A DNA stretch of 64,000 bases from an uncultured Alphaproteobacteria bacterium (GCA_963802055.1 CAWDHC010000005.1:859168-923167), one strand, 5' to 3'; positions 8,989 through 23,123 are shown, numbered from the stretch's first letter. Numbers and translations: made by a program. The notes: a model not told the origin generated them from the letters alone.

Positions 8989-10944
8989 ATGCCTTGGCAA
9001 ACATTCTGCTGCGACGTATCCAGAAACGGCGCGAAAGGGCAGCCGATAAAACGCAGCCGAACGCCGTTCACGACGATCTGATCACTGCGAATGGCAGTCG
9101 GCGCGTTGCTTATACTACCCAGTTTTATGCTGGCATTATGCGCGCCCAAAAACGCAGCCATATCATCCTGATCAATCCCGTCGCCCGATACCCCAAGCCC
9201 GCCAATGAGAGTTGATCCGCGATAGACAGGAACCGATCCGGGAAAAATCTGCATGCCATTTTGCAGACGGTTCTGGCCCGTTGCTGCATCCGGCGTGGTG
9301 GTGCAACGGGCTGGCGTGTCGGGGTTGCTGCCTAGTAAAAATCCAACATGGGTTTTGATATTGTCGACAATCAAAGCCGATTGCAGCCCGGTTGAAAATG
9401 GGCTGAAGCCATTAATATCACGCGAAAACGGCCCTGCCGGACGGGTAACTTCGCCATCAGGAAAATAGGGTCGGGATATGTTGGCGATGGCGCGGTTGCT
9501 CCATCCTGTCTGTCCGGTAAAAATAGCAGACGAACCAAAGAATATGCGCGCCTTGCCCAAAAACAGATTTACATCAGGATTGATGTTCGCAGCAAGATCA
9601 GATGCCGAGTTTGGGTTAGAGAAAAAAGCGGCAGTGCGGGCTTTTTGTAGTGATACATCCGTGCCGAACACCGGCGCATCAGGGCCGCGCACAATGCCGA
9701 GCACGGCGCCATGGCTATCAACCAGACTGATCGTCATTTGTGCGCGGCTGTCTGATGGGCGGCGTATCTGGCCGCGTGCGCGTGACATGATGGTGAAGGC
9801 TTCTTCGAGCAAGGCGGTCGCTTCTGCGGCGCTGAGCGGTGTGGTGACCGAGGCTGCGTCAGTCCCGGGGCGAATGGGGAAGCGGTTTGTGCCCGAACCG
9901 TTGGTCAACACATAGGCATCCCGATTGGAAAATTCGCTGGCCGTAGACGCGCGGATGCCCGATGCCTCCGCGCCAAATATGGTGCCGGCTAAGATAGCTC
10001 CGCTGGTATAGCCCGGCACGGCGGTCAGATTTCCGATGCTGCCGTTGATTGCGGCGAAGCTGGCGGGTGCGCCGCCGCGCAGGCCACTCGCGTCCGCATC
10101 GCTATAGCGCAGCAACGTGCCGTCCACGCTGATCCGCTCGGCGCGAATGTCAACGGGGGAAGAAAAATCCTGCGTGGCGGCCAAGGCGATGAATTCTTCA
10201 TCATCCTGATCGACATTCAGGATGTCGGGATCAAATCCATAGACCCCGTCTGCCATGATCCCGACGCCGCCAACCACCGCACCATTTTTATATAGCGGAA
10301 AGCCTCCTGCATCCGCCGCCAGCCCCAGCGGGGAGCGCTTCGGACCGATCAGGGCGGCGCTTCCCAAATTGCCAAACCGCTGGCTCAGATCAGAACAGGG
10401 CAGCTGGCTGAATTGCACACCATAAAGCGGGCCACTTTCCAAACCGGTCGTGGATGGGGCCGGGGGAAAATGCTGCTGCACAATCTGGCTTGCGGTCCGG
10501 GTGGAAAAAGCATTGCCGGAGCTGGAGAGATACGCGCCCGTTATTGCCTTTGCGATTGCCCCGGCAACGGCGGCAGGAGCAGGCAGGTTCAGCCCTTGCA
10601 ATTCCGTATTGAACGAAGCTCCGCCCGGTGCATCGGGTATCTTGAGCCCCAAATTCGCGCCGTTCATCACGAACACGCCCAGCACATTGCCCACGCGGTC
10701 CACCACAGCGATGGTTGCGGGCAAGTTGCGGGCTTGCGCCTCTGCAACAGCGCGTGAAATAACCCGTTCAACATCTGATACCGATAATGCTTCTGCCAAT
10801 GGGTCCGCAAATAGCCGCCCTGCTGAAGGTGGCGGCGGTGGCGGCGGTGCTCCCGCCGCCGGATGAGCCGCTGCTGCCACCGCCGCCGCAGGAGCTGACG
10901 ATAAGCGCGCAACTGGTAATGATAGCTGTCAGGTCTTTGCGCAT
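8985..10944 (-). CDS. Heme-binding lipoprotein with two GlcG/HbpS-like domains; apparent +1 frameshift at ~10851-10854
   Basis: ATG 10944 with GAGGT RBS gives MRKDLTAIITSCALIVSSC-GGGGSSGSSGGG (lipoprotein signal). The body is in the +1 frame (APPPPPPPSAGRLFADP...) with two repeats such as TIAVVDRVGNVL..AKAITG..GGFPLYKNGAVVGGVG and TISLVDSHGAVL..QKARTA..GSVPVYRGSTLIGGLGVSGDG. Span is 653x3+1 nt. Confidence 0.8.
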
Positions 10945-12482: not shown

Positions 12483-13838
12483 TTAGACCACACCAAATGC
12501 CAACATAGCATCTGCAACTTTTTTGAAACCAGCGATATTTGCCCCGCGTACATAATCACAATGGCCGCCGCCGATCTGCCCGTATTTGACGCATTGGCCG
12601 TGAATTCCGTCCATAATATCGATCAGCAATTGTTGCAGCTGGTCTTCTTTCCAGGAAATCCGAGCGCTGTTCTGGCTCATTTCCAGCCCTGAGACAGCGA
12701 CACCGCCAGCATTTGCCGCCTTGCCCGGTGCGAATAATATTTTGGCAGCTTTGAAAATATGCACACCGGCAAGGTCCGTTGGCATATTCGCGCCTTCACT
12801 CACCGCAATACAGCCATTTTCAACCAGCATTTTAGCGTCATCTCCGAGCAGCTCATTTTGCGTGGCACAGGGCAAAGCAACATCGCATTTCACGCCCCAT
12901 GGGGTTTTCCCTTCATGATAGCTGGAGCCGGAAAACGCATCAACATATTCACTAATCCGGCCGCGCCGGACATTTTTAAGGGCTTTGATCCAATCAATTT
13001 TTTCCTGCGATATTCCGTCGGGATCATGAATAAAGCCACCGCTATCAGACAGCGTCACAACCTTGCCGCCCAGCTGTGTTACTTTTTCGGCGGCATGGGT
13101 GGCTACATTGCCTGATCCCGAAATAACGGCTATTTTACCTTCCAGATTATCGCCTTTGGTTTTTAGCATATTGGCTAGGAAATATACCGCGCCATAACCA
13201 GTCGCCTCGGTTCGGATCAGCGACCCACCATATTCCAAGCCTTTGCCCGTTAATACGCCTGTAAACTGGTTGGTGATGCGTTTATATTGGCCGAACATAT
13301 ATCCGATTTCGCGCCCGCCTACGCCAATATCGCCCGCTGGCACATCAACATCCGCGCCGACATGACGGTATAATTCGGTCATGAAAGATTGGCAGAACCG
13401 CATAACCTCATGGTCGCTTTTGCCTTTGGGATTGAAATTCGATCCTCCCTTTGCTCCGCCCATGGGCAAGCCAGTTAGTGCGTTTTTGAAAGTCTGCTCA
13501 AAGGCCAGAAATTTTAAGACGCTTTCCGTTACCGAAGGATGGAAGCGGATACCGCCTTTATAGGGGCCGATCGCATTGTTGTTTTGAACGCGCCAGCCGC
13601 GCTGAACACGGACATTGCGATTGTCATCTTCCCAGCATACTCGAAATGAAATGACGCGGTCGGGCTCGGCAATGCGCCTTAATATTTGTTCCCGGTGATA
13701 GCGCTCTTTATCTTCGATAAAATCAAAAATATCCTCTGCAACTTCTTGTACAGCCTGAATAAATTCAGTTTGCCCCGGATTTCGCTTTGCCACGCCCTGC
13801 ATAAATGTTGGCAGGTCTACATGTTCTGTTTCAGCCAT
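12483..13838 (-). CDS. gdhA: NADP-specific glutamate dehydrogenase
   Basis: GPYKGGIRFHP, LPMGGAKGG, DVPAGDIGVG, ATGYG, GSGNVA, EGANMP, PGKAANAGGV. Confidence 0.95.
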   Translation of the reverse strand: MAETEHVDLPTFMQGVAKRNPGQTEFIQAVQEVAEDIFDFIEDKERYHREQILRRIAEPDRVISFRVCWEDDNRNVRVQRGWRVQNNNAIGPYKGGIRFHPSVTESVLKFLAFEQTFKNALTGLPMGGAKGGSNFNPKGKSDHEVMRFCQSFMTELYRHVGADVDVPAGDIGVGGREIGYMFGQYKRITNQFTGVLTGKGLEYGGSLIRTEATGYGAVYFLANMLKTKGDNLEGKIAVISGSGNVATHAAEKVTQLGGKVVTLSDSGGFIHDPDGISQEKIDWIKALKNVRRGRISEYVDAFSGSSYHEGKTPWGVKCDVALPCATQNELLGDDAKMLVENGCIAVSEGANMPTDLAGVHIFKAAKILFAPGKAANAGGVAVSGLEMSQNSARISWKEDQLQQLLIDIMDGIHGQCVKYGQIGGGHCDYVRGANIAGFKKVADAMLAFGVV

Positions 13839-13905
13839 AACCTATCCTCTTCCTTGCTTTCAAACTACATAAAACATGCGGAGCGAACCCGGATTTCCAT
13901 ACCGA

Positions 13906-15342
13906 TTATTGGTTTCTCCTGATGACCAGATTGCGAATTTCAGTCATATCTTCCATCGCAAAGCGTATGCCTTCACGGCCCAGTCCTGAATCCTTGACGC
14001 CGCCATAAGGCATGTTGTCTACGCGGTAGCTGGGAACATCATTGATAACGATGCCGCCCACATCCAGCCTGTCCCAAGCGTCCAGCGATTTGAACAAATC
14101 GCGGGTAAAGATGCCTGCCTGCAAGCCAAATTTGCTGTCATTTACTTCATCAAGCGCGGCATTGAAATCGGTGAAGCGTGACAATATGGCCAGTGGGCCA
14201 AATGCTTCTTCGCGGTTGGCCTTGGCATCTCGCGGCACATTTTCCAGCAATGTCGCCTGCAACATCGCGCCCTCGCGCTTGCCGCCGCATAGCAATTTTG
14301 CGCCCGCTGCTATCGCTTCTTGTATCCAGCCATCCAGTCGCTCGGCCTCACTTACTGCGATCATCGGCCCGATGAAAGTATCGCGTTCTTTGGGATCGCC
14401 TGAAATCAACGTGCTTGCCCGCGCTGTCAGCATGTCTCGGAAACGGTCATAGACGCTGTCATGAATGATAATCCGCTGCACCCCGATGCAACTTTGACCG
14501 GATTGGTAGAATGCGCCGAAAATTACGCGCTCCAAAGCGTCCTCCAAATCCGCATCGGCATCAATGATAACGGCTGCATTGCCGCCCAGTTCCAATACGA
14601 CTTTCTTCTTGCCTGATTTCGCTTTCAGCGCCCATCCGACATCCGGCGAGCCGGTAAAGGATAGCAGCTTGAGGCGGTCATCTTCGGTGAACATATCTGC
14701 ACCATCCCGGCTGGCGGGCAGAATGGAAAAAGCGCCTTCGGGAAGGTTGGTTTCAGCCAATATCTCGCCCATGATAATCGCGCCCAACGGGGTCCGGCTG
14801 GCGGGTTTCATCACAAACGGGCAGCCGACCGCCAGGGCAGGAGCAATTTTATGCGCGGCCAGATTAAGCGGAAAATTAAACGGAGAAATGAAGCTGCACG
14901 GCCCGATAGGAACGCGTTTCCACATCCCTTGATAGCCTTTTGCCCGCGCCGAAATATCGAGCGGCTGCACTTCGCCGGTCATCCGCACGGATTCTTCGGC
15001 AGCAATGCGGAATGTGTCAATCAGGCGGGAAACTTCACCTTCGCTATCCTTAATCGGCTTGCCTGCTTCAACGCACAAAGAATAAGCCAGCTCGTCAAAT
15101 CGCTCCTTGAACCGAGCGACGCAGTGCATCAACACATCTTGCCGCTCATAGCTTGCCATGCGCGCCATCGGCTCTGCTGCGCGGACGGTGCCCGCGATTG
15201 CCGCGTCAATTGTTGCCGCATCTGCCTGTGCAACGCGAAAGGCCACTTCTCCGGTAAATTTGTCTGTCACCGCCAAATCCGCATTTGGCTGATGCGCCTT
15301 GTTGTTCAAATATAACGGATATACGTCTTTTAAAATGCTCAT
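13906..15342 (-). CDS. Aldehyde dehydrogenase, ALDH21/RNP123-like (candidate NADP+ succinic semialdehyde dehydrogenase)
   Basis: PFNFPLNL, MKPASRTP, FTGSPDVG, LELGGNA, catalytic QSCIG, EAFGP, PYGGVKDSGLGREG. Subfamily assignment is from recall, not a search. Confidence 0.85.
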   Translation of the reverse strand: MSILKDVYPLYLNNKAHQPNADLAVTDKFTGEVAFRVAQADAATIDAAIAGTVRAAEPMARMASYERQDVLMHCVARFKERFDELAYSLCVEAGKPIKDSEGEVSRLIDTFRIAAEESVRMTGEVQPLDISARAKGYQGMWKRVPIGPCSFISPFNFPLNLAAHKIAPALAVGCPFVMKPASRTPLGAIIMGEILAETNLPEGAFSILPASRDGADMFTEDDRLKLLSFTGSPDVGWALKAKSGKKKVVLELGGNAAVIIDADADLEDALERVIFGAFYQSGQSCIGVQRIIIHDSVYDRFRDMLTARASTLISGDPKERDTFIGPMIAVSEAERLDGWIQEAIAAGAKLLCGGKREGAMLQATLLENVPRDAKANREEAFGPLAILSRFTDFNAALDEVNDSKFGLQAGIFTRDLFKSLDAWDRLDVGGIVINDVPSYRVDNMPYGGVKDSGLGREGIRFAMEDMTEIRNLVIRRNQ

Positions 15343-16989
15343 AATTTGGCGCTTAGCTCTTTGATTTCATGATTGAGGATGCGGTCGTTTTCGCTGTAAT
15401 CAACCGGGCAGTCAATTAAATGAACACCGGGCGTATCCCGGCAATGCGCCAGTAGCTCGGTTAGATGCGTCGCACTTTCTGCACGGTAGCCATTTGCGCC
15501 ATAGCTTTCGGCGTATTTGACAAAATCCGGGTTGCCATAGTTCAGCCCCCAATCGGCAAAACCCATATTGGCCTGTTTCCAGCGGATCATGCCATAGCTA
15601 TCGTCCCGCAGGATCAGCACGGTCAGGTTCAGCCCAAGCCGAACCGCCGTTTCCATTTCCTGGCTGTTCATCATAAAGCCGCCATCGCCGCAGATCGCCA
15701 TAACTTTACGGTCCGGATATACCATAGCCGACATCATGGCAGACGGCAGGCCCGCGCCCATAGTTGCCAGCGCATTATCCAGCAAAACTGTATTTGGCTT
15801 ATGCGCGGTATAGCCGCGGGCAAACCAGATTTTGTAAACACCATTGTCGAGGCAAATGATACCGTCGCTGGGCATGCAATCACGCACCTGTTGCACCAGA
15901 TGGGGCGGGAAGATGGGGAAACGGGCGTCGCCTGATAAGCTATCGGTATGGGCGACTTCCGCATTGCGATAGGCGATCATGTCATCACATTTCCAGCTTC
16001 CGCTTGGAACAATATCTTCTTTCATTTGCCAAATCGCATTGGCTATATCGCCGATGATTTCGACGCCGGGAAAGTAAACCGGGTCAACCTCTGCGGTCTT
16101 GCTGGAAATATGGATGACCTGCGCGCCGCCGGCCTTCATAAAGAACGGCGGCTTTTCGATTACATCATGGCCAATATTGACGATGCAGTCGGACGCTTCC
16201 ACGGCGCGGTGGACGAAGTCTCCTGCCGAAAGCGCCGCGCATCCCAAGAATTTTGGATGGCGTTCATCGATCACACCCTTGCCCAGCTGGGTCGTGAGAA
16301 ACGGGATGCCGGTTTTTTCGATAAACTGCAGCAGCATCCGGCTGGTCATTGTCCGGTTCGCCCCTGCGCCAATAACGAGCACCGGCGCTTTGGCATTTTC
16401 TAACGCCTGCACCGCCGCGCGCACCGCTTTGGGGTCTGCGCTGGGTCGGCGCGAAACACTGCGCTTGATTGGCACGGCATCGGTTTGTTCGTCGGCTATA
16501 TCTTCTGGCAATTCGATATGCACAGCCCCCGGCTTCTCTTCCTCAGCCAACCGAAACGCTTCACGAACGCGGCTGGGGATATTATCGGATGCCGCCATTT
16601 GGTGTGTATATTTGGTAATCGGACCCATCATCGCAACTACATCGAGTATCTGGAAACGCCCCTGCTTGGATTTCTTGATCGGCTTTTGTCCGGTGATCAT
16701 CATCATCGGCATCCCGCCCAAAGTGGCATAGGCCGCAGCCGTCACCAAATTGGTTGCGCCTGGACCAAGTGTCGCCAAGCACACTCCAGTCTTGCCGGTA
16801 TGGCGCCCATAGGTCGCAGCCATAAACCCAGCTCCTTGTTCGTGCCGGGTCAGGATCAGCCTGATCTGTTTCGACCGCGAAAGGCTATCCAAAAAATCCA
16901 GATTCTTCTTCGCCAGGCACTCCAAATATATATTCAACGCCTTCATCTTCGAGGCATTTGATAAACAGGTCCGATGCTTTCTGGCTCAT
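15339..16989 (-). CDS. ThDP-dependent enzyme of the acetolactate synthase-like family; apparent +1 frameshift at ~16905-16908
   Basis: ATG 16989 gives MSQKASDLFIKCLEDEGVEYIFGVPGEE, then the +1 frame continues NLDFL..RHEQGAGFMA..GPGATN. ThDP motif GDGGFMMN..N. Span is 550x3+1 nt. Confidence 0.85.
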
Positions 16990-17013
16990 GACTTCCCCTC
17001 TGTAAGCTGTGTA

Positions 17014-20000
17014 TCAATTGCTCGGTTTGGCGGCCTCCGAGCAGCTGTCATCCCCGGCAGGACAGGCTGCGGGCCACAGATCATCATTGCCCGTTCCGGT
17101 CACTGGTTCATCAATTAAGGGCGGATATCCGTATGTTTCAAATTCTTTGAGTTCGAGTAGAGTGCTGGCCAGCAAAAGGCCAAAGCCCTCATCTATCACG
17201 ATAGGGTCGTTGATACGGTCTTCGCTGATTGTGGGCAGGTTTTCTGTTTGGCTGCATGCACTAATCGCTATAATCTGACATCCATTGATGGTTGACGCTG
17301 CCGCAAAGCCGCTTGCGGTCTGGCTTAGGACGTCGTTGATATATACCAGCGGAATAGTTTGTAAGCCCGTCACAAACCCTGTCGCGCCGCTGACCTGTGC
17401 ATTGATTGCAATCAAGCCGTCGGGATTGGCAATGGTCAAATTCAGACTATTTGCGGTGATGCCGCGGCGGTCCCTGTACAATATGCTGGTGCCGCTATTT
17501 TGAACGAGAATGTTGTTTCTGGCGGAAATATTCACATTATCCGCGCTTATCACGCCAGCGGTGTTGATATTGCCATCATTCGCATCCAGCCGTGCGTTGA
17601 TGGCCGAAACACTTGAAAGTGACGCGAGATCGGTCATGGCGGACTGGGTGGCCGCGGTGATGTCATTCGCATTAAGCGTCAATGCTCCTGCCAGAGCGCC
17701 CGCTGGGCCGCTTAGCGCCAATGAGCCTTGGCCAGCGATGATTTCCAGCGAATTGTCCGCTGTAATATTTACCGCATTCGCATTTCCAAAACCGCTAAAG
17801 GCAGCGGCCCCAATAACCCGAACCGACCCGGGCGTGGTGACGCTGAACGAACCATTGGCCGCTATGTTACCAGCCGCGTTATTGGCCCTGCTGGTGATGG
17901 CAAATCCATCCAAAATCACGCTGGGAACGACGGGTGGCGCAGGCGGAACCGCAGCGGTATTTAACCAGTTGATCGCGATATCGTTTGCGAAAATGCGGGA
18001 CAATTCTGTTGCCGATAGGCTATATCCAGTGCTGACCCCGCCGCCACCTATGGTCATTTGCTCACCGGCATTGTTGCTTAAATTGACCAATTGCGTTGTA
18101 CCAATGCTGCCCAACTGCGCGGTAGGACTGATCTGAATATTGCCAGACCGTACCGATATTACCGGCGCCACAGCATTGGCCAAAAAGCTCGCCAACCCGC
18201 CAGACGTCACGTCAAGTGATGTCCCGCCTGTTGCGATTCCAGCCAGACTGGCATTTTGGCCTGCTTGGACAATGATCTGGTTTCCATTTGTAGACGCCAA
18301 ATTAACATTGCCGCCTGCATCGAAGTTTAACAATCCGGCCGCGCTTGCGTTGCCAGCTACGATATTGCCATTTGCCGCAATTACGTTCACGCTGCCGCCT
18401 GCTGCAGCGAGATTGCCAGTGGTAATGTCGTTAACCGCGGTCAGGCTAATATTACCCAGATTTGACGAGACGAGCCCGCCGCTTATATTTCCTGCGGTAG
18501 CGGTTACGCTGATCGACTGCGCTGCACTCAGATTAGTGAATGAGGCATTCACACCTTGCAACGCTATCGACAATGCGCTGCTGCTATTTCCCAAAATGAC
18601 ATCGCCTCCAGCATTTAACTGAACGGCAGTACCCGGCACCGCAATGCTGCCAAAATTAATCCCGCCGCCTGCATTGACCTGAAACGGAACAGCCGCGCCT
18701 TGGGTGTAGGAGAGCACGGAAATGTTTCCGGGAAGCGCATAAATTGGCTCAGCCGCTCCGCCTATCCCCGCAACAGTTGTAAGTTGCCCGCCAGTATTAA
18801 TCGCGCCGGCCGCGATATTGGTGCCTATAGTGATGCCAATATCATTGGCAGAGGTCAGATTGCCATTGCCCGTCAGGCTGCCGTTTGCTGCATCAATCTG
18901 CAACAAATTGCTGGATAGCGATGAATTGCGAAGGGAAACATCGCCTTCAACGCTGGTCAAATTGATTTGATTTATTCCGGCGATGGACGAAGCCGAACCG
19001 AGCGGATCGCCGATTATTAAATCCCGCCGGGCGGTGGCCAAAAAGATATTCGCATTGACATTGCCGCCTTCGATATAGGCCTGCACCGGAACGCCAGATC
19101 GCCCAAGCGTATCAACCCGCTGCCCTATTTCGACACGGTTAGTGGCGGCTAATCTGCCCAAACAGAGATTGCCTTGCAAGCATTGTCCGCCGAGCAGGCC
19201 AAAGTCGTTGGACTGGCCCGTGGCAGCGATTGTCGCATTTGACGGCGCATTGTTAATATCCGCCTGTATTGAGCCTGCAGAAATCGTTCCGCCCAGCCCG
19301 TCAATCGCATCGGCAGTCAGGGTAACGGATGAGTTGGAGCCATCCAAATTGCCGCGCGTCACGATCGAAGCAATTGGTGTTACCAGCGCAGACGATAATT
19401 GCGCCGACAGACCGCCCGCAGCAAGCACCATTTTGGCCGCATTGTTAAACGGGCTTGCGGGATTTAGCGGAACAGTCGGATTGAAAGCCGATATTACAAC
19501 AGCGCCTGCCTGAATTATTATATCATCGCCGGTAGCAAATCCCACCAGATCATTTGCACGCACATTAGCGGCGCTGGTAACAACGACATTGCCCCCGGCA
19601 AAAGCAACCACATCGCCCACAGAAGTAATGGTGCCGGTCAGTGCCGCATGATATAATGGGTCATAGAAAATACCCAAGCCTGCGATATTCTGATAGCCAG
19701 CGTCGACCCGGATTTGGAGCGGGGGATTACCAACGCCGCTTGCAGTTAGTACAGCATTGTTTAGTGTTGCATTTAGCCGTGCGGCCAAGCTGATGTGATC
19801 GACACCTGTGATATCATTGATGCTGATATTGCCGGTTGTCTGGACATATATTTCACTGCCTGACCGAATTCTCGAACCGGGCTGGCTTACAAAATCACCC
19901 CCCGCATTGGCATAAATTGATCCGGCAGAATCTATCGAAAACACTCCGCTATTGTTGCTGTGATTGACCATTATGGATTGGCTAGCCGTCAGGTTGGTGC

Positions 20001-21339
20001 CGCCGCCAACGACAAATTGCCCACTATCCTGGAAATTAAAACCAATATCTGCGGCGGTTAAATTGGCGCTGCCATCCACCCGCACTGCGCCACCATTGCC
20101 CGCCCCGATGTCAATCTGCTGGCCCGCATTAAGGGTCAGATTATAGCGATAACCTGTTGCACCGGTGCCCACCAACACATTAGCTGCTGCAGGCATTTCC
20201 GCATTAATGGAACCGCTAGCGGTTGCTCCGGTGTCGGATGTAAAAGAACCGCCGGTAAAGTTTATATCAGCGGTGATGCCGTTTGCAGGAGAAGGGTCGA
20301 CAGTCACTTGCGGGAAGGCCGCCGTGCCGCCGACCGCAACATTATGGCCCGCACTTAAGACAACTTCTCCGTTTGAGATGATGGCAGTGGATGCTGCGCG
20401 GTATCCGGCAGTGCCGCCCAGCAGCATTGTGATGGCATTATTCTTAGGCACAGCGACCATGTAGATGGCGCGTGCGTCCGGGTTGCCAGCCACGGGTGTT
20501 GAGGCGTCTCCCGTCGTGGTGCCGGTATGGACAACGCCATTGGCGTCATCTGTCCCGGTTTTGATCGAAATTCCAAATAGACCATTGCTGATCTGCAACT
20601 GCCCCTGTTCACCCCCAATATAGCCCACAGACCCGTCAACATCGACCGTGCCGCTTTGCACTACGCTAGGCGCGAACATGGCTAAATAGCTGCTGGTGCT
20701 CAGTTCATTTAGCGCAGTAACTTGTGCGCCATTTTCCACAACTATGCTAGAATTGGGGGTGATCGCACCCGTGAAATTGATGCTGCCACTGTTTCCGACG
20801 AACAGGTCGGCATTGGCGATGGCGCTGGTTGAAAGTAATAAACTACCGACATCAAAAGTCGAAGTGCTGCCCAATATGATCCCGCCCGGCGTGTAGAACC
20901 AGATGCTGCCAGCGCGTTGGGTCACGGCAGAGCCAGCCACTGAAACTACATTTCCGTCAAAACGAACCGGCCGATTGTTCACCGGATTGCTCGCGTCATC
21001 TATCGGCAAAATCCGGTTTAATACTGCAAAATCAACGACAACGCTGCCAGTCGAACGAAAGGTCGCGGTTGTGTTTTGCGCCTGGAACAAAATCTCGCCT
21101 GTTCCGCTAGTGTCATTTGGTTGCCAGTTAATCACCGCAGTTGGCGTGGAGATCGATATCTCGGTCGTATTTGGGCCAGTGGAAAAAGAAACTCCGCCTG
21201 CCTCAATAGTCGGCGTTCCTTGAAAAGACTGGGCATTGGCATCTGTCGCTGCTGCGCCAATGGTAAGCGCGATTAAGCATGCGCCAGCCAGCAAGCTACT
21301 AGATGATTTTCGAAACTGTATCCGGTCAAATTTTGACAT
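17014..21339 (-). CDS. Large exoprotein, TpsA / filamentous-hemagglutinin-like beta-helix protein (1441 aa)
   Basis: Signal peptide ending ANA, secretion-domain-like AVINW, long G/A/N/S/T-rich beta-helix repeats. ATG 21339 overlaps the TpsB stop (TAATG). Confidence 0.8.
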   Translation of the reverse strand: MSKFDRIQFRKSSSSLLAGACLIALTIGAAATDANAQSFQGTPTIEAGGVSFSTGPNTTEISISTPTAVINWQPNDTSGTGEILFQAQNTTATFRSTGSVVVDFAVLNRILPIDDASNPVNNRPVRFDGNVVSVAGSAVTQRAGSIWFYTPGGIILGSTSTFDVGSLLLSTSAIANADLFVGNSGSINFTGAITPNSSIVVENGAQVTALNELSTSSYLAMFAPSVVQSGTVDVDGSVGYIGGEQGQLQISNGLFGISIKTGTDDANGVVHTGTTTGDASTPVAGNPDARAIYMVAVPKNNAITMLLGGTAGYRAASTAIISNGEVVLSAGHNVAVGGTAAFPQVTVDPSPANGITADINFTGGSFTSDTGATASGSINAEMPAAANVLVGTGATGYRYNLTLNAGQQIDIGAGNGGAVRVDGSANLTAADIGFNFQDSGQFVVGGGTNLTASQSIMVNHSNNSGVFSIDSAGSIYANAGGDFVSQPGSRIRSGSEIYVQTTGNISINDITGVDHISLAARLNATLNNAVLTASGVGNPPLQIRVDAGYQNIAGLGIFYDPLYHAALTGTITSVGDVVAFAGGNVVVTSAANVRANDLVGFATGDDIIIQAGAVVISAFNPTVPLNPASPFNNAAKMVLAAGGLSAQLSSALVTPIASIVTRGNLDGSNSSVTLTADAIDGLGGTISAGSIQADINNAPSNATIAATGQSNDFGLLGGQCLQGNLCLGRLAATNRVEIGQRVDTLGRSGVPVQAYIEGGNVNANIFLATARRDLIIGDPLGSASSIAGINQINLTSVEGDVSLRNSSLSSNLLQIDAANGSLTGNGNLTSANDIGITIGTNIAAGAINTGGQLTTVAGIGGAAEPIYALPGNISVLSYTQGAAVPFQVNAGGGINFGSIAVPGTAVQLNAGGDVILGNSSSALSIALQGVNASFTNLSAAQSISVTATAGNISGGLVSSNLGNISLTAVNDITTGNLAAAGGSVNVIAANGNIVAGNASAAGLLNFDAGGNVNLASTNGNQIIVQAGQNASLAGIATGGTSLDVTSGGLASFLANAVAPVISVRSGNIQISPTAQLGSIGTTQLVNLSNNAGEQMTIGGGGVSTGYSLSATELSRIFANDIAINWLNTAAVPPAPPVVPSVILDGFAITSRANNAAGNIAANGSFSVTTPGSVRVIGAAAFSGFGNANAVNITADNSLEIIAGQGSLALSGPAGALAGALTLNANDITAATQSAMTDLASLSSVSAINARLDANDGNINTAGVISADNVNISARNNILVQNSGTSILYRDRRGITANSLNLTIANPDGLIAINAQVSGATGFVTGLQTIPLVYINDVLSQTASGFAAASTINGCQIIAISACSQTENLPTISEDRINDPIVIDEGFGLLLASTLLELKEFETYGYPPLIDEPVTGTGNDDLWPAACPAGDDSCSEAAKPSN

Positions 21340-23123
21340 TATAGGCTCCACGGGAACAACTTCACGGTCAATGACATCAGAAAACGGACATCGCCTTTGC
21401 GGCTCAACAGTCCTGCCGTTTTTAAAGGAGCTGCGGCGGTCAAATCAAGCCGGGCACTTTTGCCCAAAGCTGCCCGAACGCCGCCGCCCAAAGAATATAG
21501 ATGGGTTCTGTTGCGCGCATAAGGCGCGGTTAAAATATCCTTGTTCCAAACCTTTGCAGCATCAAAAAAAGTAAAGGGTTGCACGGCCAGATCCTTGATG
21601 GATTTGGGTTGCAGAGAAAATAAGCGCAGTTCAGCTTGCGAACCCAAGCCGCTATCACCCAGCAACACGCCCGCATCATAACCGCGGCCGACCGTGTAAT
21701 TCCCCGCACTGAACTCTTCGTAACTGACCAGCGATTTTGGCGCAAATTGCCCGCGCATTGACAGCGACAAAGCAACATCGGGTATCGGCCTATATTCGAT
21801 ATAGGCTTGGCCGCGCGCCACAAAGCTGGAAGTATCGGCCTCTATTCGGCTAAGCGGCGTAAATGGTGGCAGGCAGCGCAAAAAGCCCGCGCCGCAGGCT
21901 GGGCTTGCACCAAGTCCGCTTATGCCTTGCCGCAATTCTGTTGACCCCCCAAAGCGCCAATGGGGTTCCGCCCCAGTATAGCCCCTTGCACTGGAAAGGC
22001 TTGCAGGATCTCTGACATCAAAATCAACGCGGCCATAAGCAATGCGTAGCTGATCTCTGGTCAAAGGCGTCGTGCCAAATCGTGTTTCTTGGTCAATCCA
22101 GTCGAATCCAGCCGATACGACCAGATTTTTTGATTGGCTGCGGATGACGGGATAGCTTGCCGACAGCGACGCGATTAGAGTTTTTGATGTGATCGGTGCG
22201 GGCGGATTGAGCGTCGGTGAAGACCATGCGTGCGTGACATCTGCCGACACACGAAGTCCGTTGTTACCAATCAGAAAGCTATGTCCCGCCTGCAAGATGG
22301 TTTGCTCTTTGCTATCCACTGTGTTGAAAATACTCAGCGTGGTTTGATCACCAAGGCCGGTTATACCATTTATTCTCGCTCCCAGAAGGCCGCCAAAGCG
22401 CCCGGTGTCGACGGATCCCAAATTCTGAACATTGGCTTCCAGTTCAAATCGCCGATAGCTAACCGCTACCTCGCCAATCACTTCGCCAGGGACGGTTCCG
22501 GCTGGTCGCAAGGTCATCCGCACATCATAACCCGGAATGTCTCGGGCCAGCAGCATGGCCCGCTCGGCCTCGACAAAGTTGAAAATGTTTTTGTTGGTTA
22601 AAGATTCTAGAAATGCAACCAACCGTCCTTCCGACGGCCCAGCATCGCCGCGCACCTGCACCTTTACAAGCCTTGCCAGCAATACATCGAATTTCAACGT
22701 GCCGCCCGGCGCAATGCGCTGCGGCACCACTTGCACCGCCGCCAGATAGCCGGCACGCCGCAATGTCGTCGCGGCACGGTCTCGTATTTCGCATAGCTGG
22801 GCAATCGGCAGGGTTTTTCCGGCCTCATCACGCCAGCTGCTATCCAAGGATGCAGGAGCAATGCCGGAAAGCCCCGAAAATTCAACGCTTGAAAATGATA
22901 TCTGCACATTGGCATAAGCCGGATCGGCGAACGGGCAGGGTGCTCGTTCGATATCGCCATCGACTTTCAGGCGGCTGCGCTGCACTTCGACGTCAGGCAG
23001 TTCTTTGCTTTCCAGCTCGTCTCTTGTCGGTGCAATGTTGCTTTGTGCGGCAACTGCAGTCGGCATGAAAAAACTGGCACCAGCCAACGCAACATATGCG
23101 AATCGAAAAGCGTTGTCTGGCAT
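21339..23123 (-). CDS. ShlB/FhaC/HecB-family TpsB outer-membrane transporter
   Basis: Signal peptide, POTRA-like region, N.GS..TG motif (NLGSVDTG), GRGY loop motif, terminal beta-strand VRFLMSLTVKLF. Confidence 0.88.
   Translation of the reverse strand: MPDNAFRFAYVALAGASFFMPTAVAAQSNIAPTRDELESKELPDVEVQRSRLKVDGDIERAPCPFADPAYANVQISFSSVEFSGLSGIAPASLDSSWRDEAGKTLPIAQLCEIRDRAATTLRRAGYLAAVQVVPQRIAPGGTLKFDVLLARLVKVQVRGDAGPSEGRLVAFLESLTNKNIFNFVEAERAMLLARDIPGYDVRMTLRPAGTVPGEVIGEVAVSYRRFELEANVQNLGSVDTGRFGGLLGARINGITGLGDQTTLSIFNTVDSKEQTILQAGHSFLIGNNGLRVSADVTHAWSSPTLNPPAPITSKTLIASLSASYPVIRSQSKNLVVSAGFDWIDQETRFGTTPLTRDQLRIAYGRVDFDVRDPASLSSARGYTGAEPHWRFGGSTELRQGISGLGASPACGAGFLRCLPPFTPLSRIEADTSSFVARGQAYIEYRPIPDVALSLSMRGQFAPKSLVSYEEFSAGNYTVGRGYDAGVLLGDSGLGSQAELRLFSLQPKSIKDLAVQPFTFFDAAKVWNKDILTAPYARNRTHLYSLGGGVRAALGKSARLDLTAAAPLKTAGLLSRKGDVRFLMSLTVKLFPWSL

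Follow-up and report, generated by a model that had tools for sequence, protein, structure and literature searches.

The closest described relatives of the genes considered here come from cyanobacteria and from moss. The cyanobacterial OgdA/KGD plus SsaD bypass, represented by Synechococcus PCC 7002 A2770/A2771, Synechocystis sll1981 and Microcystis MaKGD (PMC10418658), pairs a thiamine diphosphate (ThDP)-dependent enzyme that resembles acetolactate synthase with an aldehyde dehydrogenase (ALDH), and takes 2-oxoglutarate (2-OG) to succinate by way of succinic semialdehyde (SSA). Moss ALDH21 is described in a preprint as a cytosolic NADP+-dependent succinic semialdehyde dehydrogenase (SSADH) in which Arg121, Arg457 and Tyr296 bind the SSA carboxylate (bioRxiv 10.64898/2026.01.13.699213, citing Kopecna et al. 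2017). The present analysis concerns a 64-kb stretch of DNA from an uncultured alphaproteobacterium, a freshwater sphingomonad (hereafter the window; coordinates are counted from its first letter) in which a ThDP gene, an ALDH gene and the glutamate dehydrogenase gene gdhA follow one another on the minus strand. The ThDP enzyme is probably a 2-OG decarboxylase that has been misnamed acetolactate synthase, and its partner is probably an NADP+-dependent SSADH, as judged from family membership, active-site residues and gene neighbourhoods. In the assembled sequence the first of the three genes is interrupted by a single extra base, so the state of the gene and the function of the intact module are treated as separate questions below.

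The locus and its predicted pathway

The three genes and the spacer within them are as follows.

15339-16989, minus strand: ThDP-dependent enzyme gene, about 548 aa if read through, with a +1 frameshift; Pfam TPP_enzyme_N, TPP_enzyme_M and TPP_enzyme_C; NF006187/PRK08322
13906-15342, minus strand: ALDH21-family aldehyde dehydrogenase gene, 478 aa; Pfam Aldedh; start coupled to the ThDP stop
13839-13905, minus strand: spacer between the ALDH gene and gdhA, 67 nt, with the ribosome-binding site GGAAGAGGA before gdhA
12483-13838, minus strand: gdhA, NADP-specific glutamate dehydrogenase gene, 451 aa; NF006929; ELFV_dehydrog_N and ELFV_dehydrog

The initial annotation had described three co-directional genes, and their coordinates, the ATGA overlap and the 67-nt gap before gdhA are all borne out: at 15339-15342 the ThDP stop overlaps the ALDH start by 4 nt, and no terminator-like hairpin was detected in the 67-nt spacer. 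What it missed is the frameshift: the ThDP gene is not a single open reading frame (ORF). That no ilvH or ilvC lies nearby holds as well: tblastn searches with E. coli IlvH, IlvN and IlvC found no match across the whole 64 kb, and E. coli IlvB and IlvI matched this ThDP gene only. The gdhA product scores 728 bits against NF006929 (cut-off 536) and contains both PF02812 and PF00208; the gene has a G+C content of 0.495, compared with 0.54 in its neighbours and 0.548 in the whole window.

Read in its intact form, which would be that of near-identical environmental strains, the module could be a catabolic one that works in three steps. GdhA would interconvert glutamate and 2-OG (NADP+/NADPH), the ThDP enzyme would decarboxylate 2-OG non-oxidatively to SSA, and the translationally coupled ALDH21-type enzyme would oxidize SSA to succinate with NADP+. 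The net result would be a candidate route around 2-oxoglutarate dehydrogenase that yields NADPH and depends on neither coenzyme A (CoA) nor lipoate. On balance we favour this scheme from glutamate to succinate. What is observed directly is the family of each protein, the conserved SSA-binding triad, and the adjacency and natural fusion of the ThDP and ALDH genes. Release of an aldehyde by the ThDP enzyme is suggested by the coupling to an ALDH; that the aldehyde would be SSA, and the substrate 2-OG, is suggested by moss ALDH21 biochemistry, two active-site lysines and the enzymes of glutamate and 2-OG metabolism found as neighbours; and gdhA may belong functionally to the ThDP-ALDH pair. Most likely, the module would be a variant of the cyanobacterial bypass, built from a ThDP enzyme of a separate clade and a non-orthologous SSADH of the ALDH21 type.

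The name acetolactate synthase comes from one model. NF006187/PRK08322 is the only NCBIfam model that the 535-aa main ORF of the ThDP gene passes (833 vs 509 bits); the ORF falls short of both AlsS models (NF006378, 408 vs 510 bits; TIGR02418, 372 vs 551 bits) and of TIGR00118, the model for biosynthetic acetohydroxyacid synthase (AHAS; 321 bits, cut-off 538). For comparison with enzymes of known activity, a cyanobacterial KGD set was built on peptide fragments of the assayed Microcystis MaKGD, taken from mutagenesis primers (PMC10418658 supplement), and the motif NDGGYGLIEWK was searched in genome contigs, giving 110 loci in which the cyanobacterial hits carry all four MaKGD fragments. Because these KGD orthologues match the same NF006187 model at 866-878 bits (Thiofaba reaches 784, and PDB entry 13bb 622), its label also covers 2-OG decarboxylases: the name acetolactate synthase spans an experimentally proven decarboxylase family. 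The idea of an OgdA-like enzyme hidden behind that name is therefore upheld as far as the label goes, which derives from NF006187 and neither the AlsS nor the AHAS models, but orthology of the window enzyme to OgdA is not supported. Its identity is 41-44% to cyanobacterial KGD, about 44% to 13bb, 33% to the AlsS of B. subtilis and 28-31% to the E. coli proteins IlvI and IlvB, and where MaKGD has the signatures TTRHEQ, SNGFAAMG, TGDGGFM and FNDGGYGLIEWK, the window enzyme reads LTRHEQ, DNALATMG, CGDGGFM and QDDSLGMIRWKQ, so that these signatures of the KGD clade are absent. The exact NDGGYGLIEWK signature also occurs outside cyanobacteria, in Gammaproteobacteria (e.g. Thiofaba), Nitrospirota and Thermodesulfobacteriota (L006, L009, L018, L033, L054, L079, L090, L103), and the non-cyanobacterial proteins placed in the tree group with cyanobacterial KGD (97/98), the Nitrospiraceae one excepted.

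The active site offers a first hint about the substrate. In MaKGD numbering (that of locus L042 plus 3, consistent at five landmarks), the catalytic Glu50 is kept, as are Met410, Asp435 and Asp462, in the alignment of the window enzyme. Docking into an AlphaFold model of MaKGD places Lys386 in hydrogen-bonding contact with 2-OG, gives Lys471 a salt bridge and makes Gln254 a further contact; these contacts were docked and not mutated in that paper (PMC10418658). Both lysines are kept throughout the window clade, in the motifs DNGxYKxW and RWKQ, and the same two positions (386/471) are A/Q in AlsS, Q/Q in IlvB and Q/W in IlvI. Position 471 presumably aligns with the AHAS tryptophan that lines the acceptor channel. 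The conserved lysines point to 2-OG as substrate, but as a suggestion only.

The partner enzyme is a member of the ALDH21 family by sequence, and the resemblance to plant ALDH21 proposed in the initial annotation is confirmed. Its best solved relatives are the Burkholderia structural-genomics ALDHs 5j6b, 5jry and 5kf0 (726-730 bits), and moss ALDH21 (5mz5) comes next with 565 bits and about 56% identity over the full length. No NCBIfam model passes, and the GabD/Sad-type SSADH models fail by wide scores (TIGR01780, 311 vs 646; NF008415, 289 vs 828; NF006915, 243 vs 730). With the offset of 18 between chain and native numbering of the Physcomitrium patens protein (PpALDH21), all three residues of its carboxylate-binding triad map correctly: R106, Y279 and R440 of the window ALDH correspond to R121, Y296 and R457. 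The catalytic C285 and E251 are present, and the cofactor-region motif KPASRTP is identical in the two proteins. The window ALDH is a probable NADP+-dependent SSADH. The parallel with cyanobacteria drawn at the outset holds in one respect, since KGD orthologues do adjoin an ALDH, and fails in another: that SsaD-type partner falls in another ALDH family, shares about 31% identity with the window ALDH and has K/L/K at the triad positions.

A recurring pair and its neighbours

Full-length homologues of the ThDP protein (549 aa, 83-86% identical) are found in Sphingorhabdus, Sphingopyxis and other Sphingomonadaceae. Around the three genes of the window lie a two-partner-secretion pair upstream and, downstream, a c554-like cytochrome and an HbpS-like protein (Pfam). 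Four contigs with an 85%-identical ThDP protein, together with metagenome locus L140, keep the order ThDP, ALDH, gdhA, c554-like cytochrome, HbpS-like protein and next gene.

Beyond these nearest relatives, the association of ThDP and ALDH genes is the feature that persists. A metagenome scan with the clade alignment gave 63 loci (59-96% identity) with at least 1.5 kb of downstream sequence, and the pair is present in 42 of them (67%): directly downstream of the ThDP gene lies an ALDH21-type gene in 25 loci, a second ALDH21-like type with the same triad in 14 and another ALDH in three. Named genomes repeat this arrangement. B. multivorans has an ALDH21-type gene, 68% identical to that of the window, directly after a ThDP gene of 66% identity; in Sphingopyxis DBS4 a small GIY-YIG insertion separates the two genes of the pair; and in Leisingera, Croceicoccus and Rhizobium the ThDP gene precedes the second, more distant ALDH21-like type, which keeps the R/Y/R triad.

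The two enzymes can also be one protein. Among cluster representatives there is a bacterial ThDP-ALDH protein of 1016 aa (P0123; L129 5001-8051) and a eukaryotic one of 1019 aa whose gene adjoins RRP12. A homologue search with the eukaryotic protein found fusions of about 1050-1150 aa in liverworts (Riccia, Calypogeia), ferns (Ceratopteris, Adiantum), the streptophyte alga Mesotaenium, green algae (Ostreobium, Bryopsis, Coccomyxa, Elliptochloris), the labyrinthulid Hondaea and the red alga Rhodosorus; in Physcomitrium and Sphagnum the ThDP protein is separate. The ThDP halves of the fusions share 50-59% identity with the window enzyme, compared with 37-41% with cyanobacterial KGD, and the ALDH halves share 53-63% with the window ALDH. 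In those checked, the ThDP half retains GMI[KQE]WKQ and the ALDH half FYQSGQSC, and DNGxYKxW and the arginine of E-V-x-R-L-I are kept in most. Because the ALDH is fused to the ThDP enzyme or translationally coupled to it, the ThDP enzyme may be expected to release an aldehyde. The literature searched (with incomplete coverage, so that novelty is not proven) contained no description of the ThDP-ALDH pair in heterotrophs and none of ThDP-ALDH21 fusions.

Three further observations concern these proteins. The eukaryotic ThDP-ALDH21 fusions (P0274-P0302; L127 1384-4908) carry the UniRef name 'NADP-dependent glyceraldehyde-3-phosphate dehydrogenase'. The bacterial fusions, of about 1015-1050 aa (P0123; P0303-P0318), contain the second ALDH21-like type with the R/Y/R triad. 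On solvent-tolerance megaplasmids, Pseudomonas sp. VLB120 pSTY (L132 5995-7638) and that of P. putida S12, a 72%-identical ThDP homologue has the srpABC efflux genes, transporters and an FAD monooxygenase as neighbours and lacks an ALDH close by.

Enzymes of glutamate and 2-OG recur beside the ThDP gene. First, gdhA follows the ThDP-ALDH pair in the nearest Sphingorhabdus-like relatives only (the four contigs and L140). Second, Leisingera and five metagenome loci (L169, L170, L190, L210, L218) have, next to the ThDP gene, a stand-alone protein with an FMN glutamate-synthase domain; in Leisingera (L136 4413-9483) the order is this protein, the ThDP enzyme, the ALDH and then RidA. Third, the KGD-motif scan includes three loci (L061 3275-4558, L074 4393-5688, L118 106-1389) in which a gene of the glutamate dehydrogenase family (427-431 aa) lies divergently next to SsaD-KGD; L061 and L074 are cyanobacterial by name, and the arrangement parallels the adjacency of gdhA in the window. 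Because the recurring neighbours are unrelated enzymes that share glutamate and 2-OG, they support 2-OG as the substrate of the ThDP enzyme; they do not indicate the direction in which GdhA works. A pyridine-nucleotide-disulphide oxidoreductase takes the place of the downstream ALDH in L169, L170 and L182 (L188 is partial), and the glutamate-synthase-domain gene is found in L169 and L170.

Taken together, the pair and its fusions invite a broader proposal, which in all its parts at once we regard as doubtful. The window-clade ThDP enzyme and ALDH21 might form a single unrecognised route from 2-OG to succinate, free of CoA and lipoate, that is shared by proteobacteria (Sphingomonadaceae, Burkholderia, roseobacters, rhizobia) and eukaryotes. 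In the eukaryotic groups with fusions (green algae, liverworts, ferns, a red alga and a labyrinthulid) a single polypeptide of about 1100 aa would carry out both steps. A 2-OG decarboxylase would thereby be the real upstream partner of plant ALDH21, instead of or besides the gamma-aminobutyrate (GABA) shunt. In the Sphingorhabdus lineage the pair would be wired to gdhA, and, lying directly upstream of a multihaem electron-conduit cluster, could feed it NADPH from glutamate oxidation.

The frameshift in the ThDP gene

The features that bear on the interruption of the ThDP gene are these.

16891-16989, minus strand: 5' part of the ThDP gene, in a frame of its own, with start codon, first beta-strand and GVPGEE motif, and a premature TAG at its end
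16903-16910, minus strand: site of the single-base insertion; the window has GAAGAAGAAT, relatives have GAAGAGAAT (which codes for E-E-N)
15339-16946, minus strand: ThDP main ORF, 535 aa when started at an internal ATG; codons 1-14 are filler read out of frame, and the authentic sequence begins at Asn29
16990-17013, minus strand: gap of 24 nt between the stop of a TpsA-like gene (17014-21351) and the ThDP start

From the ATG at 16989 the frame reads MSQKASDLFIKCLEDEGVEYIFGVPGEE, the canonical N-terminus of the enzyme family, and then meets a TAG after 36 codons. An extra A near 16906, in GAAGA[A]GAAT, shifts the frame after codon 28, and the remainder of the protein, from 'NLDFLDSL' on, lies in another frame (15339-16946). 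A relative's 549-aa protein is split in the same way by tblastn, into frame -2 (16989-16891, residues 1-33) and frame -3 (16943-15342), and the NCBIfam hidden Markov model matches of the 535-aa ORF begin at profile position 27. Among the sequencing runs screened, none contained the window's own genome (the best share of words was 0.32), and near-identical metagenome contigs were compared here: two freshwater contigs from different studies, with 0 and 2 mismatches in this region, both lack one base at 16906. Because neither has the extra base, strains at least 99% identical carry the intact gene. Programmed frameshifting was considered and rejected, there being no known slippery or stall context and the strains of at least 99% identity simply lacking the base.

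Two explanations are left, an indel in the assembly and a real mutation, and the first is favoured, with somewhat better than even confidence. A second single-base frameshift lies 6 kb off on the minus strand (10840-10944, near 10850-10880), in the gene for the HbpS-like lipoprotein: one frame encodes its lipoprotein signal and Gly/Ser linker (MRKDLTAIITSCALIVSSCGGGGSSGSSGGG...), another its poly-Pro linker and body, and a relative's 661-aa HbpS-like protein is continuous across that point (the N-terminus was compared). The metagenome contigs are patchy and this second frameshift falls outside their coverage. Because two single-base events occur within 6 kb, both in well-conserved genes, an indel-prone assembly is the likelier cause.

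The other explanation, which we hold to be a real possibility although the less probable of the two, is that the frameshift is genuine: the ThDP gene would be a young pseudogene and the module would be decaying in this strain. This concerns the state of the gene and not its ancestral function, so it is compatible with the pathway favoured above. In its favour, the frameshift is present in the assembled sequence, the inserted base stands outside any long homopolymer, and the upstream context is unlike that of relatives: in the closest ones a PycTM-domain gene and an amine oxidase gene lie upstream, with about 400 nt before the ThDP start compared with 24 nt in the window. That gap leaves no space for a promoter of the ThDP gene outside the TpsA coding sequence, and under the decay explanation the two-partner-secretion cluster, which now ends 24 nt upstream, may have separated the gene from the promoter it once had. 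Against decay stand the intact form in the strains of at least 99% identity, the error-prone assembly suggested by the second frameshift, and the condition of the gene itself, which apart from the one base has no other stops and encodes a protein 86% identical to relatives. The secretion cluster (17014-23123) is placed differently in the window than in relatives and may affect operon transcription; a scan for promoters and terminators gave counts not above those in shuffled sequence, and no operon boundaries were derived from it.

Weighing the substrate, and comparison with known systems

Several findings weigh against a 2-OG decarboxylating module, in this strain or in general. As assembled, the ThDP gene is broken: the 535-aa ORF lacks F22, P25, G26, E27 and E28, which are invariant in an alignment of 11 clade members, and its product would presumably not fold or function normally. 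The function of the clade is a prediction, and its identity to characterised KGDs, from which it stands apart as a clade of its own, is 41-44%. Phylogeny with cyanobacterial KGD, AHAS and AlsS does not group the window enzyme with the assayed KGDs, as likening it to OgdA had implied: the window clade (100/99), the cyanobacterial and gammaproteobacterial KGDs (97/98), AlsS (100/100) and AHAS (100/100) are separate, robust clades, and in the careful tree the branching order of the window, KGD and AlsS clades has bootstrap values of 5-29. A sister relation between the window clade and KGD, seen in a quick tree of 55 sequences with a Shimodaira-Hasegawa-like approximate likelihood-ratio (SH-aLRT) value of 96, was dropped on these grounds. 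Because orthology to OgdA has no support from the tree, the functional call must rest on evidence beyond orthology. In the pocket, three substrate or cofactor contacts predicted by docking differ in the window clade (Q254S, V382N, H385Y). The association with ALDH is also incomplete: 21 of the 63 metagenome loci have no ALDH within 4 kb, and homologues 68-74% identical on Pseudomonas pSTY, Tistrella pTM2 and a Palleronia plasmid have none within 4-6 kb. A relative of 13bb (L131 4328-8051, 50% identical) is flanked by RraA-like and Lyase_1 genes and a transketolase gene, which suggests that a 13bb-type subclade has a different function within the same large clade. The claim that gdhA forms part of the module finds little echo outside the nearest relatives, to which its adjacency is limited: gdhA is not beside the pair in Sphingopyxis, in Burkholderia or in the 62 other metagenome loci. 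NADP-dependent GdhA, moreover, usually works in the assimilatory direction. Finally, the Km of moss ALDH21 for SSA, 181 uM, is rather high (bioRxiv 10.64898/2026.01.13.699213).

Some of these points could also be read as signs of another substrate. The same architecture might act on a different anionic 2-oxo acid (2-oxoadipate, giving glutarate semialdehyde, or 4-hydroxy-2-oxoglutarate or oxaloacetate) with gdhA as a mere neighbour, and we consider this unlikely. The distinctness of the clade from the assayed KGDs, the three altered pocket positions, the lineage-specific adjacency of gdhA and a moss Km for SSA that is not low would all fit such a substrate, as would the varied contexts of the ThDP gene, which include carnitine and agmatine genes in Leisingera and an aromatic monooxygenase on Pseudomonas pSTY. 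Opposed to it are the partner ALDH, whose sole characterised relative prefers SSA and whose carboxylate-binding triad is intact; the two different glutamate/2-OG enzymes that recur beside the ThDP gene; and the conservation of both lysines that were docked on 2-OG (and not mutated in PMC10418658).

ALS-like enzymes often show carboligase side activities. That the product of the ThDP gene is a true acetolactate synthase of the catabolic type, or a different ThDP carboligase, with the ALDH gene and gdhA as unrelated neighbours, is nonetheless very improbable: the NF006187 label reads 'acetolactate synthase large subunit' and the closest solved structure, 13bb, was deposited under that name, but the protein falls below the cut-offs of both AlsS models and of TIGR00118, the window contains no ilvH, ilvN or ilvC, the 4-nt overlap with the ALDH gene, the 67% rate of a downstream ALDH and the ThDP-ALDH fusions argue for an aldehyde product, and MaKGD, of the same NCBIfam family, is inactive on pyruvate according to PMC10418658.

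If 2-OG decarboxylation is indeed the function of this clade, 'acetolactate synthase large subunit' would be the wrong name for thousands of genes of heterotrophic bacteria, lower plants and algae, whose products would be 2-OG decarboxylases, and a shortcut through the tricarboxylic acid cycle that yields NADPH and needs neither lipoate nor CoA would be far more widespread than the cyanobacterial case suggests. Plant ALDH21 would gain a defined upstream partner. There would also be a candidate gene family for the 2-OG decarboxylase activity that is on record in Bradyrhizobium (cited in PMC10418658). For the window, the result is an operon that probably encodes a bypass; the assembly has a frameshift in its first gene, which needs confirmation at the level of reads before the gene is used in a metabolic model.

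Among known systems, AlsS (B. subtilis 4rjj, K. pneumoniae 1ozf) and AHAS (E. coli IlvB/IlvI) have the catalytic Glu, the GDGG-N/D motif and a ThDP fold of three domains in common with the window's ThDP enzyme. It differs from them in its low identity (33% and 28-31%), in model scores below their cut-offs, in its distance from their separate 100/100 clades and in the K/K residues of its pocket. Unlike theirs, its gene has no regulatory subunit gene and no ilvH, ilvN or ilvC as neighbour in the window (alsD was not included in the search). The Mycobacterium protein of PDB entry 13bb is the closest solved ThDP structure (481 bits, about 44% identity); it belongs to the same large clade and keeps K471, and no function was found on record for it, but unlike the window enzyme it sits in a subclade of its own and has Met at 386, and its 50%-identical relative lies between RraA-like and Lyase_1 genes with no adjoining ALDH. 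On the ALDH side, the Burkholderia proteins 5j6b, 5jry and 5kf0 are the closest solved structures but are without an assigned function, and no gdhA stands beside the Burkholderia pair. The ALDH of the B. multivorans pair we take to be of the same family as these deposited structures.

In the cyanobacterial bypass too, an ALS-like ThDP enzyme of NF006187 adjoins an NADP-type aldehyde dehydrogenase, with the same predicted chemistry from 2-OG through SSA to succinate, and the window enzyme keeps K386, K471, the ThDP-binding GDGGF...D motif, Met410 and Glu50 of the cyanobacterial KGD. The differences lie in the makeup of the module. The window enzyme stands in a robust clade of its own, with 41-44% identity and without NDGGYGLIEWK; its partner is of the ALDH21 and not the SsaD type; gdhA is attached; and the host is a heterotroph. 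The gene order is also reversed: in the window the ThDP gene precedes the ALDH gene, whereas of the 110 loci from the KGD-motif scan (mostly cyanobacterial) 68 have an ALDH gene beside the ThDP gene, and upstream of it in those read. Moss ALDH21 (Physcomitrium patens ALDH21A1, 5mz5/5mz8) resembles the window ALDH at about 56% identity, with Arg121, Tyr296 and Arg457, the catalytic Cys and Glu, and KPASRTP in common. Unlike it, the window enzyme is bacterial and operon-encoded and its SSADH role is predicted, while the moss enzyme is placed in the GABA shunt. The ALDH21 of many algae, liverworts and ferns is fused to a ThDP domain of the very clade to which the window enzyme belongs.

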